Shown here: positions 71 through 17,819 of the stretch, in pieces
Layout of the letters: every line of letters starts with the position of its first letter
How positions within the stretch are numbered: the first letter of the stretch is position 1
IMG/VR virus record: IMGVR_UViG_2703718769_000006
DNA from: a virus
Lineage: Duplodnaviria > Heunggongvirae > Uroviricota > Caudoviricetes
Strand: one strand, 5' to 3'
Length of the DNA: 18,463 nt
The notes under the pieces: generated by a model
What the model was told of the DNA's origin: nothing
The model's database searches: none
Seen by the model: the letters and a program-made list of their open reading frames with translations, nothing else
Made by a program: the position numbers and the translations under genes

Positions 71-1234
71 TTATGCTTTCTTTGCATCCTCAAAAACCTC
101 AGGGTGGGACAAATTTGGGACATCGTCACCCAATATGTCGTCAATTTTCCTCGCGTGCTCTGTCAAATGATTAGGTGCAAGGTGTGCGTACCTACGCACC
201 ATTTCGATAGACTCCCAGCCGCCCATTTCCTGAAGTACTGACAGCGGTACACCTGACTGAATTAACCAACTGGCCCAGGTATGGCGGAGGTCATGAAAAC
301 GGAAATTTTCAATTCCTGCCCGACGACATGCTGTTAACCACGATGTGTTATAGTCCAGGCGCATCTTTCTGATGCTTGGTGTCATTGTCCCGTCAGGCCT
401 TCTGGCAGCAGTGGTATAAACAAACACCCAGCGGTGATGTTTGCCTATTTGATCACGCAACACCTTGCAGGCAGTGTCATTCAGTGCGACCCCAATAGCG
501 CGGTTTGACTTACTGTCTTCAGGGTTTACCCAGGCAACACGTCGCTGCATATCGATTTGTTGCCACTCCAGATTAATAATGTTTGATCTCCTCAGGCCAG
601 TTGCCAGTGCAAATTTAACTACAGATTTCAGGGGATCAGAACATGCATCAATGAGTCTCCTGGCTTCTTCTTTTTCCAGCCATCTCACGCGTTTGTTTTT
701 TACGGCAGGTATTTTGATTACAGGTGCTTTTTCAAGCCATTTCCAGTCTCGCTCTGCGGCGCGCAGAATAGCCTTGATCATTGCCAGGTGTGTTGCTTTT
801 GTTTGCGTGCTCACCGATTTAGGTATATAGGCTGGTGGTTCTTTCCCTTTTCTTAATGCAGCCTCCACCTGCAACTTCCATCTCTCCTTTGTTTTTCGGT
901 TATACGCTTTGCTGATAACTGAGTAGATCATTGCCTCCGATATATCCTTAATCCTTATACCCTCGAAATGCTCAATCCAGAATGCGATTCTGGATTTATC
1001 GGAATCGATGGATTTCTTGTCGGCTTTTTCCTCAAGCCATCTCAGGCAGGCTTCTTCGAAAGTGACATCTGGCATATCCCCCAGTTTGTCTACTCGCCAG
1101 AGTTCTGCTTTTCGCTTGTCGTGCAACTCCTGAGCTTGCCGCTTGTCCTTTGTGCCAAGAGACTCCTTAATTCGCTTCCCGCCCGGGAGCGAGTACGAGG
1201 CGTACCATATTTCACCTCTGCGGAAGAGTGACAT
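71..1234 (-). CDS. int: Tyrosine-type phage integrase
   Basis: 387-aa ORF with C-terminal tyrosine recombinase motifs (…[41 protein letters not shown]…). Terminal gene, directly downstream of an excisionase-like ORF. Confidence 0.9.
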
Positions 1235-6409: not shown

Positions 6410-6670
6410 ATGTGCCATCTGGTCATTTTCGGCGCATTGCTTACTGCAATATTGCCGCTCTTCGGTTACGGGGATTGTGCCTTTCATAAAATGAAGATGA
6501 CTTTTAACGGATTTGGTTTGTTCGGTTTCCTTATTGCAGAGATGGTAGGCACATTTTATTTTTACATTTATCACCATGACTCCGCTTTTACAGGTAAACC
6601 ATCACGTCCGAGGAAGACTTTAATCATGCAATCGGTAATGCATGTTTTTGTCGTGAAGTTACGAATATAG
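6410..6670 (+). CDS. Putative small membrane protein with two hydrophobic helices
   Basis: ORF 6377..6670; an internal Met at 6410 ([20 protein letters not shown]…[21 protein letters not shown]) gives two hydrophobic segments. Plus strand, divergent from the 128-aa gene and overlapping the 3' end of the minus ORF 6571..6792. Confidence 0.3.
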
Positions 6671-6792
6671 AGTTTTCTCTTTTCAATATTGTTTGCTGAA
6701 GCGATATATGTCCGCCCTTCATGAAGAACATAATCGCCAGGTGTCACGCACTGACGTGGTATTTCATCAGTTCTGAAGTGATGAGCAATCAT
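6571..6792 (-). CDS. Hypothetical protein (about 73 aa)
   Basis: ORF 6571..6810; the Met at 6792 is preceded by GGAG with a 6-nt spacer. In the pL-operon orientation. Confidence 0.35.
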
Positions 6793-6965
6793 AATTATCT
6801 CCATTTTCACAAATGAACTTTGTTGATGCGGTGCCTGGTGCCTCCAGGTGACGTTAACCAGTTAACAATTAACGCCGGGTCAGGGGACGATGACTTTCCG
6901 TGACATCCTGTCGGTTTAACTGTTCCGCGTGCGCTGAGCCGCATTCACCGCATCACAAAATTCAC

Positions 6966-7011
6966 TTTAAAAAAGGGCGGATATCAGCCAGCAATTAAAC
7001 TGATATCCGCC
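6966..7011 (-). terminator. Strong rho-independent terminator, possibly the 3' end of a small RNA
   Basis: Perfect 12-bp inverted repeat GGCGGATATCAG…CTGATATCCGCC (6976-6987 / 7000-7011) followed on the minus strand by UUUUUU. Sits inside a 440-bp stretch with no minus-strand ORF (6811-7252). Confidence 0.55.
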
Positions 7012-7165
7012 AATGACTACACACAGCAATGTTGTTATTCACAACCGGAAGCGCACGGTCGAAGAAATCTAACGACAAGCCTTCAAAGGGAAAGAGTCTT
7101 CGCCGTGCGCTTTCGTGTTGCACCCTGGCTTTTCAGGGTAATATCTGTTCAGTAAACTGACAGTG

Positions 7166-7194
7166 CCGGATGCTCACCCGTGTCCGGCGCACGA
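7166..7194 (+). promoter_or_regulatory. Conserved leader element, copy A
   Basis: CCGGATGCTCACCCGTGTCCGGCGCACGA; 27 of 29 positions match the reverse complement of 15775-15803. It ends exactly 58 nt upstream of the ATG at 7253 and is followed by the hairpin CTCCAC-N7-GTGGAG. Confidence 0.5.
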
Positions 7195-7252
7195 ACTCCA
7201 CCTGACCCGTGGAGAACTCCTCAACTACAAACCCCGTAAGGAGAGTGAATTT

Positions 7253-7462
7253 ATGACACAAGAAGAAAAAGTGATGTTTCTGATGCGGCTGGCTGTCGAT
7301 ACCTACAACACACAATTCAGGGAGAAAGATATACCTCAAAAGGCAGTTCCTGCCGCGGTAGATAAGGGCGGTGCTATTGCCGTATTTTACGATGCATTTG
7401 AATCATTTTTTGATGAAAAACTCGATGCTGTTAGCGACTTCGGAACATCGAGTAATAAATAA
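7253..7462 (+). CDS. Small hypothetical protein A (69 aa), antisense to the pL operon
   Basis: Strong SD AAGGAGAG 7 nt before the ATG at 7253 (ORF track 7163..7462). Product MTQEEKVMFLMRLAVDTYNTQFREKD… Overlaps the 3' end of the convergent minus ORF by about 32 nt. Confidence 0.5.
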   Translation: MTQEEKVMFLMRLAVDTYNTQFREKDIPQKAVPAAVDKGGAIAVFYDAFESFFDEKLDAVSDFGTSSNK

Positions 7463-7790
7463 CGTTCATTACGGTTCTTAAACAACAATCAGTGGGCTTG
7501 ATGTTGTTCTTTTCAAGCTCACTTGCCATCACTTCCATTATTCTTGCGCTTACACGAATTATTTGGTGGCTGTAAGCGACGCAACTGTCGCTGATATTGC
7601 TGTTTATTTCTATTACTTCATTTTCACCATTAGCATCAACTTCGGATGCGCTGTTTTCATTATCCTGTTTCAGTGCTTTTTCTGCCATCTGGATGCGTGT
7701 CAGCGTTGCGGAATTTGGGCTAAGTCGATAAACCTGTTTGGCATCTTCCAGAAGCAGGGCGATAATGTGCTTCAGTTCTGTTTCGTTCAT
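7431..7790 (-). CDS. Hypothetical protein (about 119 aa)
   Basis: ORF 7431..7811; the Met at 7790 has GGAG 6 nt upstream. Lies 31 nt downstream of the 238-aa gene, suggesting an operon. Confidence 0.5.
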   Translation of the reverse strand: MNETELKHIIALLLEDAKQVYRLSPNSATLTRIQMAEKALKQDNENSASEVDANGENEVIEINSNISDSCVAYSHQIIRVSARIMEVMASELEKNNIKPTDCCLRTVMNVIYYSMFRSR

Positions 7791-11696: not shown

Positions 11697-11760
11697 TATT
11701 CAGGCAGGGCATGGAGCAATACACGGGAATAATTCTGCCACATCTGGAAGAATTTCGCCA

Positions 11761-11916
11761 GCAACAACACCAACCGCAGCAGCCTGAAGCCGATTGGGTT
11801 AACCCGGAGATACCGGGACCGTCTGTGAAGATGTGCAGTCACACCAATGTGCAGTCACACCAACCGCAGCAGCCTGAAGCCGATTGGGTTAACCCGGGAG
11901 ATACCGGGACCGTCTG
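11761..11916. repeat. Two tandem copies of an approximately 60-bp repeat upstream of the O-like gene
   Basis: Copy A 11767-11826 and copy B 11857-11916: ACACCAACCGCAGCAGCCTGAAGCCGATTGGGTTAACCCGG(G)AGATACCGGGACCGTCTG. Each carries the dyads GGGTTAACCC and CCCGG-N5/6-CCGGG. The short tandem GTGCAGTCACACCAA occurs twice between them. Confidence 0.85.
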
Positions 11917-11949
11917 CGGTATGGAGTAAATCTTGTATGCGAGGGGACT

Positions 11950-13032
11950 ATGCGTAATTACGCAACAATTTCACCTCAGTTCTGGTTAGGCGATACAGGG
12001 CGAAAACTAAGGAAGTCTGGTCCGGAATGTATGGTAGTGGCGTTGTATATGATGACCTCGCCTCATTCCAATATGCTGGGCCTTTATTACCTGCCTGTTT
12101 TGTACATTGCTCACGAAACCGGACTTGATCCTGAAGGGGCTTCTAAGGGGCTTCAAATGGCTTGCGAGGCTGGTTTTTGCAGCTATGACCATGATTCTGA
12201 GGTTGTATGGGTGCATGAAATGGCAGCATGGCAGGTTGGTGAATCGCTGAAACCTGGCGATAACCGTTGTGCTGGGGTAAGAAATGAATATTCCGCGTTG
12301 CTGGAAAATCCTTTTTTATCATCATTTTATGATAGATATAAGGATGATTTCCACCTGGATGTCAGACGTGAATCATGTCGGAAAATTGAAGCCCCTTCAG
12401 AGCCCCTTTCAAGCCAAGAACAGGAACAGGAACAGGAACAGGAAAGAGATAAAACCCTTCTGGTCCATGGCGAAAAAATCGCCACGGACCCACTGGTGGA
12501 TTCTTGTCCCGTTCTGACTGAACGTCCAGGACCAGCTGGCATGACACCGGAAGCAGATTCCGGGCGTTGTGTGCAGCAGGTGCTGCTCGTCGAACCGGAG
12601 CAACAACACCAACCGCAGCAGCCTGAAGCCGATTCCGCGATGAGCGGGAAGCCGATTGGGTTAACCCGGGCGATGCCGGGACCGTCTGCGGGACGAGTTG
12701 ATTATCCTGACGTGTTCGAACGGGTCTGGCGTGAATATCCGCATCGGGCAGGGTCAAACCCGAAGAAATCCGCGTTCAATGCCTGGAGGGCCAGATTACG
12801 CGAAGGGGTGTCACCGGATGTCGTGCTGGATGGCGTGAGGCGTTACGCAAGATACCTGGAGGCTACCGGGAAAGCGGGAACTGAATTTGTTCAGCAGGCA
12901 TCGACGTTTTTTGGCCCGAACAGGAATTTCGAAAATCCGTGGTCGCTGCCGAAGGCTGGCGCAGTCAGCCTGCGTTGCGTGAATCACATTTCTGAACCGG
13001 ACACCGAAATTCCGCCGGGTTTCAGGGGGTAA
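11950..13032 (+). CDS. Replication initiator (O-like replisome organiser)
   Basis: 360-aa ORF directly upstream of a DnaC-like loader gene. Its central linker has low-complexity SQEQEQEQEQER and a third copy of the repeat. Function is assigned by position and architecture, not by a recognised motif. Confidence 0.65.
   Translation: MRNYATISPQFWLGDTGRKLRKSGPECMVVALYMMTSPHSNMLGLYYLPVLYIAHETGLDPEGASKGLQMACEAGFCSYDHDSEVVWVHEMAAWQVGESLKPGDNRCAGVRNEYSALLENPFLSSFYDRYKDDFHLDVRRESCRKIEAPSEPLSSQEQEQEQEQERDKTLLVHGEKIATDPLVDSCPVLTERPGPAGMTPEADSGRCVQQVLLVEPEQQHQPQQPEADSAMSGKPIGLTRAMPGPSAGRVDYPDVFERVWREYPHRAGSNPKKSAFNAWRARLREGVSPDVVLDGVRRYARYLEATGKAGTEFVQQASTFFGPNRNFENPWSLPKAGAVSLRCVNHISEPDTEIPPGFRG
12415..12444 (+). 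repeat. (CAGGAA)n hexanucleotide tandem repeat inside the O-like gene
   Basis: caagaa followed by four perfect caggaa units, encoding the EQ-repeat linker. Confidence 0.9.
12606..12691. repeat. Third, interrupted copy of the 60-bp repeat, inside the O-like coding sequence
   Basis: ACACCAACCGCAGCAGCCTGAAGCCGATT-[ccgcgatgagcgggaagccgatt]-GGGTTAACCCGGGCGATGCCGGGACCGTCTGCGG; the same unit as 11767-11826 with an internal duplication of GAAGCCGATT. Confidence 0.85.
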
Positions 13033-15045: not shown

Positions 15046-15546
15046 ATGCATTTGAATAAAGAGCATCAATCCATGATGGGCAAGCGCCAGACAGAAGAGG
15101 CTGTTCGCGATCTGGAAAAACTACTTGGCTATCGTGAAACAAAACTGCTTTTCCTGGTTCCGGTTATTCGCCAGAAGGTTGAGGAAATTCTTGAAGAAAA
15201 TGGCATCCCGAAAGAATACATGACGGATGCCATGGAATATTCACTCGAACTGGTACGAATTACTCCTGATCTGACCTGGCTTGATGAGTATCAACAACAA
15301 TTTGAGAAAGGCGCAGAAACGTTACTTTCTGCTGCTGATAAAACAGAGCAGAAAACAGAACCATCGGTATTCTGGAATACCGTTGAGGCTATTGCCAGGA
15401 GCAAGATATTTGAGTTTAACAACATCAATCATTCCGGGAGAGACACTCATCAATCATCACATCTTGAGGGGGTGTCCATGCTTCTAGCTCTGTTGCGAGA
15501 GCAAGGCGAATGTCCTCAGTCGACATTGAACGACACTGAGCAATAG
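15046..15546 (+). CDS. Hypothetical protein (166 aa); 3' end uncertain
   Basis: ORF follows the previous gene by 12 nt. Its last 120 nt overlap the convergent 96-aa ORF, so one of the two C-termini may be wrong. Confidence 0.45.
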   Translation: MHLNKEHQSMMGKRQTEEAVRDLEKLLGYRETKLLFLVPVIRQKVEEILEENGIPKEYMTDAMEYSLELVRITPDLTWLDEYQQQFEKGAETLLSAADKTEQKTEPSVFWNTVEAIARSKIFEFNNINHSGRDTHQSSHLEGVSMLLALLREQGECPQSTLNDTEQ

Positions 15547-15715
15547 TCCATCCGTATTTTCCGGCAAGATAAAGATATATTGCGTCAAAGCCATAAATAG
15601 TCCTTGGATACCCCTCTTTAATAGCCAGAGAGTCCCCGAAGCATTCAAGAAAGTAATTTGAGCGGGCTGTTTCGTAATGAAAATTCCAGCGAGCCTGATT
15701 GAGTTTTTTGTCCAT
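15425..15715 (-). CDS. Small hypothetical protein B (96 aa), antisense to the pR operon
   Basis: ATG at 15715 preceded by GGAGGATAA. The conserved leader element lies exactly 58 nt upstream, as at gene A. Confidence 0.5.
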   Translation of the reverse strand: MDKKLNQARWNFHYETARSNYFLECFGDSLAIKEGYPRTIYGFDAIYLYLAGKYGWTIAQCRSMSTEDIRLALATELEAWTPPQDVMIDECLSRND

Positions 15716-15774
15716 TTATCCTCCATTGTTGCTCTGTTTTGAAAAATGGAGACCTTCACGCTGCAACGTGAGGT

Positions 15775-15803
15775 CGTGCGCCGGACACGGGTAAACATCC
15801 GGT
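15775..15803 (-). promoter_or_regulatory. Conserved leader element, copy B
   Basis: Minus strand reads CCGGATGTTTACCCGTGTCCGGCGCACGA (27 of 29 positions match 7166-7194), followed by the hairpin CCTCACG-N6-CGTGAAGG, then 58 nt to the ATG of protein B. Confidence 0.5.
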
Positions 15804-15848
15804 ATTCAAAATTTAATGTTAACGAATTTTTAATATTGAGGTTATGAC

Positions 15849-16893: not shown

Positions 16894-16969
16894 ACTTATC
16901 CGGGATTATATTCTTCGCACGGTCGAGTTGGCCGTCGGGATTGGAACCCCGGATAGAGACCGCGACAAA

Positions 16970-16995
16970 CACACGCCGCGAGCGTGTTTTTTATT
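16970..16995 (+). terminator. Rho-independent terminator inside the leader upstream of the antirepressor gene
   Basis: ACACGC-CGCGA-GCGTGT followed by TTTTTTATT on the plus strand, about 75 nt downstream of the predicted plus-strand start site and 160 nt upstream of the ATG at 17154. Confidence 0.55.
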
Positions 16996-17153
16996 GTCGT
17001 ATGCACGCGCACATCTGAATTATGGTGGGGCGCATGGGGGAGCTGAAAAGCTCGCCGGTCGGTTTCCCGGTAGTTCCAACCCTGTGCGTCTCACCACCCG
17101 ATGATTGGAACCTTACGGTGGTGATAGTTTAGAAACCACTAGAGGGCGTCATT

Positions 17154-17819
17154 ATGACAACTCAAATCTCTGTTGAAACCATCTCCCCGATTACCCATAA
17201 CCAGATTCCTGTTATTACCACCGAGCTTTTGGCACAACTTTATGGCACCGAAACTAATAACATCAAAGTGAACTATACACGCAATGCCGAGCGTTTTGTT
17301 TGTGGGAAACACTACTTCAAATTGGAAGGGGCTGGATTGCGGGAATTTAAGAATAAGGTTACTCAAAGTAACTTAGTTGCACCGCGTACAAAGCACCTCA
17401 TCCTTTGGACAGAACGCGGGGCAGCCCGTCACGCAAAAATGCTCGAAACTGATCAGGCATGGGAAGTGTTCGAAAAACTGGAAGACTGCTATTTCAGCCA
17501 GGGAAAAACAACACAAACCGAACAGCAGCCGCAGATTCAGCCGCAATTCACAGCAGAAGACATCATCCTACTCTGCTACGTTCAACTCTGGATGGAAAAA
17601 GCACAACAACTCAGTAAGCAGCTATACCCCGTCATGAGAGAACTGAACTCTGATTACTACGGGAAACTGTTTGATCTGGCCTACGAGACTCGTCATATAA
17701 CCAACCGGACTCGCGACACATTGCTCCGCGAAGCAGCAAAACTTGATCCCGCCAACTATATGGTGCATAGGGCCAGAAGCATGCTGGCGCAACTACGGGC
17801 AAGACAATTTGAATTCTGA
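17154..17819 (+). CDS. Phage antirepressor-like protein (ORF6N/Bro-N-type N-terminal domain)
   Basis: N-terminal region …IPVITTELLAQLYGTETNNIKVNYTRNAERFVCGKHYFKLEGAGLREFKN…LILWTERGAARHAKMLETDQAWEVFEKLED is the characteristic ORF6N antirepressor domain pattern. SD AGAGGG 7 nt upstream. Confidence 0.8.
   Translation: MTTQISVETISPITHNQIPVITTELLAQLYGTETNNIKVNYTRNAERFVCGKHYFKLEGAGLREFKNKVTQSNLVAPRTKHLILWTERGAARHAKMLETDQAWEVFEKLEDCYFSQGKTTQTEQQPQIQPQFTAEDIILLCYVQLWMEKAQQLSKQLYPVMRELNSDYYGKLFDLAYETRHITNRTRDTLLREAAKLDPANYMVHRARSMLAQLRARQFEF

Follow-up and report, generated by a model that had tools for sequence, protein, structure and literature searches.

A 29-nt element that occurs twice in the window (the whole stretch of 18,463 nucleotides that was analysed) is predicted from its sequence to be the first hairpin (HP1) of a conserved promoter-plus-leader unit of about 85 bases, which is apparently undescribed. 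This leader has one architecture and one strandedness, stands at a fixed position before small open reading frames (ORFs) and is widely distributed among prophages. We judge it probable, at roughly 0.65, that it heads an autonomous 'moron' unit, counter-oriented to the early operons, in which the mRNA would start at the foot of HP1 and the ribosome site would be masked by structure.

Setting and anatomy of the two leader copies

The window represents the early region of a lambdoid Stx-type prophage and shares 99.9% identity with Escherichia phage phiSTEC1589-Stx1c over the tested stretch. Its main features are the following:

71-1234, minus strand: integrase
Early-left side, leftward: exo, bet and gam together with a recE-like gene
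6571-6810, leftward: Kil-like gene
6975-7025, minus strand: DicF/KilS-type sRNA (Rfam DicF, 35.6 bits, below the gathering score)
7011-6976, minus strand: terminator of the DicF/KilS-type sRNA
Further right than the Kil-like gene: N and a cI-like repressor
Rightward: cro, cII, O, P and the nin region
7253-7462, plus strand: gene A, 69 aa, acidic (phrog_2605; RefSeq WP_000189936.1, hypothetical protein)
15425-15715, minus strand: gene B, 96 aa

The best alignment of the sRNA in the window is with KilS of Rac in K-12, DicF of Qin being less close, and the non-coding stretch between this sRNA and the element aligns with the ydfC-dicF spacer of K-12 Qin. The locus at 6966-7078 (minus strand) combines, as a mosaic, an upstream spacer of the Qin type with an sRNA of the KilS type, and the 5' part of the sRNA, AUUGCUGUGUGUAGUC, matches the RprA consensus over the equivalent segment of the Rfam alignment. 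Between the sRNA and the predicted promoter of the leader, at 7122-7139 (plus strand), stands a 7-bp hairpin, ACCCTGGCTTTTCAGGGT; it overlaps the possible -35 sequence and is also kept in the Qin spacer of K-12. Elsewhere in the window, isrK (54.9 bits) and a C4 antisense RNA (71 bits) stand in tandem at 16919-17101 (plus strand), directly before an antirepressor/Rha-like gene (ORF 17154-17819), a set that resembles the P1/P7-type c4-ant immunity module but is situated inside a lambdoid nin region. Direct repeats of 36-49 nt were found at 11760-11920 and 12599-12691, with identities of 89-100% in the 36-nt family and 63-92% in the 49-nt family, and a segment of the O-like replication gene has two further copies in a small ORF just upstream of it (11711-11929).

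The first-pass annotation had reported a 29-bp element with an inverted second copy, and this repeat was recovered: CCGGATGCTCACCCGTGTCCGGCGCACGA matches at 7166-7194 on the plus strand without mismatches (copy A) and recurs on the minus strand with two mismatches (27/29; copy B). The existence of copy B stands, but its earlier coordinates, 15775-15803, were one base off and should read 15774-15802. No match to the 29-mer occurred in 200 dinucleotide shuffles, and the repeat between the two copies runs on over 71 nt at lower identity. On the strand read in that annotation (hereafter the leader strand), the order of parts is a -10-like hexamer, HP1 within the element, an invariant linker, a second hairpin (HP2) and a third hairpin (HP3) pairing an anti-Shine-Dalgarno (anti-SD) with the Shine-Dalgarno (SD) sequence. 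The parts of the two copies are located as follows:

7130-7135, plus strand: possible -35 of copy A, TTTTCA, 17 nt upstream of the -10-like hexamer; a weak match that the consensus scan did not call, and a candidate only
7153-7158, plus strand: -10-like hexamer of copy A, TAAACT, ending 7 nt before CCGG
7165, plus strand: predicted start of copy A, a G placed from the -10 position and the fold, which would pair with C7188 at the HP1 foot
7166-7194, plus strand: 29-nt element of copy A, HP1 followed by the linker CGCACGA
7166-7187, plus strand: predicted HP1 of copy A, CCGGAUGC (7166-7173), loop UCACCC (7174-7179) and GUGUCCGG (7180-7187)
7196-7214, plus strand: predicted HP2 of copy A, CUCCAC-CUGACCC-GUGGAG
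7217-7243, plus strand: predicted HP3 of copy A, anti-SD CUCCU (7217-7221) with SD AGGAG (7239-7243)
15810-15815, minus strand: -10-like hexamer of copy B, TAAATT, ending 7 nt before CCGG
15803, minus strand: predicted start of copy B, an A, placed in the same way as in copy A
15774-15802, minus strand: 29-nt element of copy B, HP1 followed by the linker CGCACGA
15802-15781, minus strand: HP1 of copy B, CCGGAUGU/GUGUCCGG, loop UUACCC
15753-15773, minus strand: HP2 of copy B, CCUCACG-UUGCAG-CGUGAAGG, with one bulged A
15721-15751, minus strand: HP3 of copy B, anti-SD CUCCAUU (15751-15745) with AAUGGAG (15727-15721), which contains the SD

The spacing claimed earlier was exact in both places. 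The element ends 58 nt before the ATG of gene A (gap 7195-7252, ATG at 7253) and of gene B (gap 15773-15716, ATG at 15715), and the distance from the -10-like hexamer to the element is likewise the same in both, at 7 nt. Strong SD sites (AAGGAG in copy A, AATGGAGG in copy B) precede both start codons. As had also been observed, a second hairpin follows the element at the same offset but with another sequence (CTCCAC-N7-GTGGAG at 7196-7214; CCTCACG-N6-CGTGAAGG at 15773-15753), and the element itself folds as an 8-bp hairpin, CCGGAUGC/GUGUCCGG, in which the C-to-U change of copy B leaves a U·G wobble where copy A has C-G. Scored with a covariance model of the leader, the two copies gave 101.5 and 70 bits, and the next match in the window reached 7.6 bits.

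Distribution, variants and cargo of the leader

The proposal of a shared structured leader was borne out beyond the window: the order of element, hairpin and SD was found in many prophages before at least nine unrelated small ORF families (30-104 aa) that have no similarity to each other, at a fixed distance, the predicted start lying 82-88 nt from the ATG across the leader family. In the oriented alignments a CUCC motif stands between HP2 and the SD. An exact 17-mer from the element, used as a seed, retrieved more than 120 IMG/VR prophage contigs. When positions 7100-7470 were compared by Megablast with 5426 complete E. coli genomes, 1856 of these (about one third) matched, and in most of the matching genomes only the left 134-150 nt of the query aligned, the element included. 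The K-12 copy lies in the ydfC-dicF interval of Qin on the minus strand (NC_000913.3, 1,649,101-1,649,129) and has no ORF. A genome-wide scan with the 17-mer produced mostly chance matches in GC-rich genomes; these were removed by accepting only matches with the CCGGA arm. Genuine copies at the species level were present in E. albertii, Shigella flexneri, Edwardsiella ictaluri, E. anguillarum, Trabulsiella guamensis and Pluralibacter gergoviae. All genuine matches were in prophage early regions with the same leader downstream, and phage phiP27 carries a diverged leader copy. Retrieval that was independent of the element gave a consistent result: the element is present at all 37 loci collected with the gene A protein, among them those of homologues at 47-54% identity, which retain both ORF and leader, and a seed from the SD region without the element recovered loci with HP1 in nine of 12 cases, some with single substitutions.

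Most of the E. coli copies lack an ORF and are yet intact, and many of them are 'empty', the leader running directly into the ydfC 3' end as it does in K-12. Stx2 phages, among them P13374 and VT2phi_272, have a leader of the copy B type fused to a 5'-truncated gene B. Filled, empty (K-12 Qin) and truncated (P13374) forms constitute a presence/absence polymorphism at one site. The copy B cassette occupies two kinds of place: the nin region and, in truncated form, the early-left arm in Stx2 phages. The ORF-less loci sampled through YdfC were too alike to inform on selection for their maintenance. As to the objection that the element might have no fixed position relative to genes, the position is fixed in the ORF-bearing copies, but many copies are ORF-less or truncated, and homology breaks at the 5' edge.

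Two further loci deserve mention. A contig labelled Chryseobacterium sp. 18061 (CACSKA010000005.1) contains an enterobacterial-type prophage region with the leader, and its assembly is probably mislabelled or contaminated. In an IMG/VR contig, a gene B homologue at 53% identity is preceded by an anti-SD:SD hairpin (CCUCUU...AAGAGG) and no 29-mer; an AUGCU..ACCCGUG motif there recalls HP1 and could belong to a strongly diverged leader.

The cargo proteins belong to families of unknown function or gave only sub-threshold matches in Pfam, NCBIfam, PHROGs and PADLOC, and the public name of each is 'hypothetical protein'. The proteins of genes A and B have no detectable sequence similarity to each other, and gene B matched the ECs1072 phage-associated family weakly (26 bits, below the cut-off of 70). 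Neither has a hydrophobic stretch long enough for a membrane helix as read from sequence, and the other cargo proteins (30-104 aa) are mostly soluble by the same reading. Both small genes oppose the neighbouring early operons (gene A on the plus strand, gene B on the minus strand), as the first-pass annotation had stated, and the unit was always counter-oriented to its neighbours in the compared phages. Both ORFs converge on and overlap ORFs of the early operons; gene B and a convergent 166-aa ORF (15046-15546, plus strand, phrog_25397) overlap tail to tail over the final 40 codons of each (15425-15546), and this arrangement is also present in P13374, where gene B is truncated. At five loci (Edwardsiella, the Chryseobacterium-labelled contig and three IMG/VR contigs) the leader precedes a proline-rich ORF of 30-36 aa with the pattern M[LR]INQFG..PDGQVPYRP..PKP, and about 10-20 nt after its stop codon begins a conserved 156-aa ORF (phrog_6315) with two hydrophobic segments as read from sequence, each ORF having its own GAGG-type SD. 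The equivalent slot in Rac of K-12 is occupied by sieB, annotated as a superinfection-exclusion protein, on the strand opposite kilR and kilS.

On the leader strand, neither 7165-7252 nor 15712-15803 matched any Rfam 15 family with E-values of up to 5 allowed; nearby, Rfam matched only DicF, RprA and STnc100, all within 6778-7078 on the minus strand. A search of the literature for the element as a sequence string returned two irrelevant matches only, the literature that was searched does not describe the element, and a search on 'KilS' had no match. The sRNAs described by Tree (2014) are at the PR' moron site, which is different from the site of the element, and Balasubramanian (2016) treated the ydfC-dicF region of K-12 only as a long untranslated stretch. 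It appears that neither one conserved leader common to many unrelated prophage accessory ORFs nor its occurrence in K-12 has been described. The mechanism proposed below is itself ordinary, consisting of a promoter, a 5' hairpin and SD masking.

Strand, promoter and proposed mechanism

We favour a functional RNA on the leader strand rather than on the strand of the early operons, because the G·U pairs, the fold z-scores and a few compensatory changes all point in that direction. The leader strand folds better than chance (z-scores of -3.63 for copy A and -1.92 for copy B), while the opposite strand does not (-1.00 and -0.94). HP1 includes two constant G·U pairs, to which the C-to-U change of copy B adds a third wobble, and these three positions are A·C mismatches on the opposite strand. 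The HP2 variants of other leaders stay paired through U·G, G·U and U-A; every non-Watson-Crick pair of HP2 in the ORF-bearing leaders is G·U on the leader strand and A·C on the other, and C·A mismatches in HP2 are confined to ORF-less copies. In an alignment of 23 sequences, 92.9% of the cells were paired, compared with 37-46% when the partners were slid.

The anti-SD:SD pairing of HP3 was 100% paired over the 23 leaders and contains one covarying pair (57-79 in alignment A2), next to the SD, which is U-A in 15 sequences, A-U in eight and never unpaired. A pair between the HP1 loop and the spacer after the SD (11-87) is C-G in 14, U-A in eight and U·G in one, again with none unpaired. At the closing pair of HP2, C-G gives way to U-A in Edwardsiella, with U·G as the intermediate state. 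In phiP27, HP2 (CCACACG/CGUGUUGG) has a U:A swapped for A:U, and the HP1 loop and the spacer are compensated (UUAUCC:GGAUAA). A single deep divide separates two leader clades, and the covarying pairs largely differ along it; the independent compensatory events are therefore few, about 3-5, and the covariation is to be read as supportive but less than conclusive.

Between the HP1 loop and the 6 nt that follow the SD there is complementarity, in the combinations UCACCC/GGGUGA, UUACCC/GGGUAA and UUAUCC/GGAUAA. In most leader types the energy of this duplex is -7.6 to -12 kcal/mol; for the window copies it is -4.7 and -3.4 kcal/mol, values equalled by 19% and 16% of shuffles. A pseudoknot between the HP1 loop and the spacer, acting as a second lock on the ribosome site, is accordingly put forward as a hypothesis drawn from these complementarities, and masking of the SD by HP3 is the firmer of the two proposals. 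The linker is CGCACGA(A/C) in all members, and the 3' arm of HP1 together with the linker is almost invariant from E. coli to Edwardsiella, while the 5' arm and the loop vary. The near-invariance of GUGUCCGGCGCACGA exceeds structural need, although it is inflated in appearance since most instances were fetched with an exact 17-mer that lies inside it.

Upstream of the leader, homology breaks sharply at or just before CCGG, and the flanks are unrelated between contexts. A -10-like hexamer nevertheless occurs at -13 to -8 or -11 to -6 from CCGG in ten of 13 distinct unrelated upstream contexts, six of the ten having an extended -10 TGn (for example, TGaTAACAT, TGaTATCAT and TGgTATTAT). The hexamers of the window, TAAACT and TAAATT, are weak, and a consensus scan called no promoter at either. 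From the position of the hexamer, we infer a start at the purine just before CCGG, which would put HP1 at the extreme 5' end of the transcript. The tables of Romero (2014), SMRT-Cappable-seq and EDL933 contained no coordinates or sequence matching the leader, and no terminator-like site was found after gene A (7462) or gene B (15425). Consensus sequences for sigma-32, sigma-E and sigma-54 and the TTGC repeats of the cII type, compared by eye, fitted poorly and inconsistently between the copies.

Under the favoured mechanism, a sigma-70-type promoter, with an extended -10 in most non-E. coli contexts, would fire about 7 nt past the hexamer, and the transcript would begin at CCGG or one base before it (7165, plus strand; 15803, minus strand). 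Its first 23-24 nt would fold as HP1 and leave no single-stranded 5' tail; a hairpin without such a tail protects other mRNAs from 5'-end-dependent decay. The invariant CGCACGA would follow in single-stranded form, then HP2, and then HP3, in which CUCC(U/AU) could pair with the SD. As the HP1 loop, U[C/U]ACCC, is complementary to the 6-nt SD-AUG spacer in most members (weakly in the window copies), the ribosome site might be masked on either side, the anti-SD pairing on one and the HP1 loop on the other. The leader could thereby serve as a portable expression platform on which unrelated small ORFs are exchanged, with the junction between SD and start codon. We further infer that the repressed prophage would express the unit, that masking of the ribosome site would act as a translational brake, and that converging early transcription after induction would silence the unit.

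One rival to this reading is that the element acts on the other strand, within the pL and pR early transcripts, as a signal for processing or stability of the DicF/KilS precursor or as a nut/put-like or terminator-like site. Its inversion between the two arms would then follow from the divergence of the early operons, and both copies are indeed co-directional with their own early operon on that strand; an early transcript would reach the DicF/KilS-like sRNA about 140 nt after copy A, the K-12 copy lies in the ydfC-dicF untranslated region, and ORF-less copies are common and intact. We consider such an early-strand signal very unlikely, as that strand shows no excess of folding over shuffled sequences, it has A·C mismatches in place of the three upper pairs of HP1 and of the HP2 wobble variants, and the start-codon distance and the anti-SD:SD covariation would be meaningless there. 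There is also no DicF/KilS near copy B or near the copies of Edwardsiella, Pluralibacter and phiP27, no T-run for a terminator and no boxA consensus, and the N gene and nut are more than 1 kb off. The element could instead be a passive recombination linker at a module boundary, kept by repeated use in lambdoid crossovers and without a regulatory role. The sharp break of homology at or just before CCGG, the unrelated ORFs behind one leader, and the two locations of the copy B cassette (nin region; early-left arm in Stx2 phages, where it is truncated) agree with it; a linker, however, would not keep orientation, start-codon distance, wobbles on one strand, covarying pairs and a -10-like hexamer at a fixed offset, which makes it distinctly unlikely. 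Conservation of the leader more likely led to recombination there than resulted from it, and crossovers within it probably explain the swapping of cargo.

It is unlikely, if somewhat less so, that GTGTCCGGCGCACGA (+17 to +31) is chiefly a DNA operator or an RNA-binding site of a conserved host or phage protein, with the hairpin secondary. Conservation of the 3' arm and linker beyond the needs of pairing, next to a variable 5' arm and loop, and the inverted repeat CCGGA-N12-TCCGG within the element speak for a protein site, whereas the exact 17-mer seed exaggerates the invariance on which it draws. The analysis brought up no candidate binding protein, and a phage repressor is an unlikely binder, because the element is common to phages with different immunity regions. 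A protein site is in any case compatible with the leader model and does not exclude it. A dispersed host-type palindrome of the REP kind, or a chance repeat, with no specific role, is extremely improbable: the HP1 foot GCCGGATGC...TCCGGC presumably recalls the foot of E. coli REP palindromes, but there are only two copies in 18 kb and none in the shuffles, they lie in prophage early regions with the same leader downstream, the bases 5' of the element (ACAGTG and TGAATA) include no GTAG, and neither loop nor linker looks like REP. The duplex energy between the leaders and the adjacent DicF/KilS-like sRNA was no better than that with shuffles, and regulation by this sRNA was rejected on that ground. 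The intact, ORF-less majority of copies in E. coli is left unexplained by a pure mRNA-leader role. A more elaborate form of the moron reading, which we regard as rather unlikely, would have the leader, with its fixed promoter, act as a portable riboregulatory and recombination platform with a double lock (anti-SD and HP1-loop pseudoknot), behind which prophages of several enterobacterial genera would swap unrelated ORFs at a junction just ahead of the start codon, GUGUCCGGCGCACGA being a handle for a host or phage factor, or for processing, that unlocks translation on a trigger such as superinfection or induction.

If the moron reading is correct, a common unannotated element, present in about one third of complete E. 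coli genomes and covering part of the well-studied K-12 'long untranslated region' upstream of dicF, would have a name and a set of parts open to testing. Nine or more families of small prophage proteins, all uncharacterised, would form a co-regulated class, probably expressed in lysogens and possibly active in exclusion or in host modulation. Accessory-gene slots in lambdoid prophages could be located with the leader as a search handle, it could also be a compact model for masking of a ribosome site by a 5' hairpin loop, and antisense transcription from it could affect early-left genes (in K-12 Qin, ydfC and those upstream).

Comparison with known systems

Several known elements share part of this anatomy. 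REP and BIME sequences are dispersed extragenic palindromes of about 35-40 nt with a conserved 5' GTAG, usually at the 3' ends of operons; the element is instead a hairpin of about 22 nt plus a linker, and its genuine matches lie in prophage early regions only. With DicF/KilS loci it shares the place of copy A and of most E. coli copies, in a conserved non-coding stretch upstream of the sRNA, but the element is outside the sRNA and on the opposite strand, and it also occurs where the sRNA is absent (copy B, phiP27 and Edwardsiella). The nut sites of lambda and the put sites of HK022 are comparable in having two inverted copies, one for each early arm, and a short conserved single-stranded motif beside a varying hairpin. 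The boxA consensus is CGCTCTTA-like, and CGCACGA does not match it; moreover, the structure and wobble pairs of the leader are antisense to the early operons, the copies are 3-5 kb from pL and pR, and the hairpin is the same across phages with different N proteins and immunity regions. A nut/put reading on the early strand was rejected on the fold z-scores, the strandedness of the G·U pairs, and the SD and ATG downstream on the antisense strand.

Stabilising 5' stem-loops of the ompA type likewise place a hairpin at nucleotides 1-2 of the transcript, as the predicted start would do here, but the sequence of the leader hairpin and linker is far more conserved than such a stabiliser needs. The mRNAs of type I toxins (hok, tisB, zorO and dinQ) share with the leader units a structured leader in which the SD is paired with an upstream anti-SD, small ORFs, mobile contexts and possibly long-range pairing from the 5' end to the ribosome-binding site. 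The leader units differ in that their cargo is mostly soluble and of 63-104 aa rather than short and hydrophobic; no dedicated antisense sRNA gene was found for the leader, and the early operon transcript, antisense to it throughout, would be the only antisense RNA.

The unit also resembles morons, which are autonomous accessory transcription units in prophages in the concept of Juhala and Hendrix. The leader unit, too, is an extra gene between backbone genes with presence/absence polymorphism and a promoter-like sequence, counter-oriented to the early-left operon, and its slot is equivalent to that of sieB beside kilR and kilS in Rac of K-12, sieB itself lacking the element. It differs from morons in that no terminator was found and in that one leader is common to at least nine unrelated cargo ORFs and occupies two genome positions.
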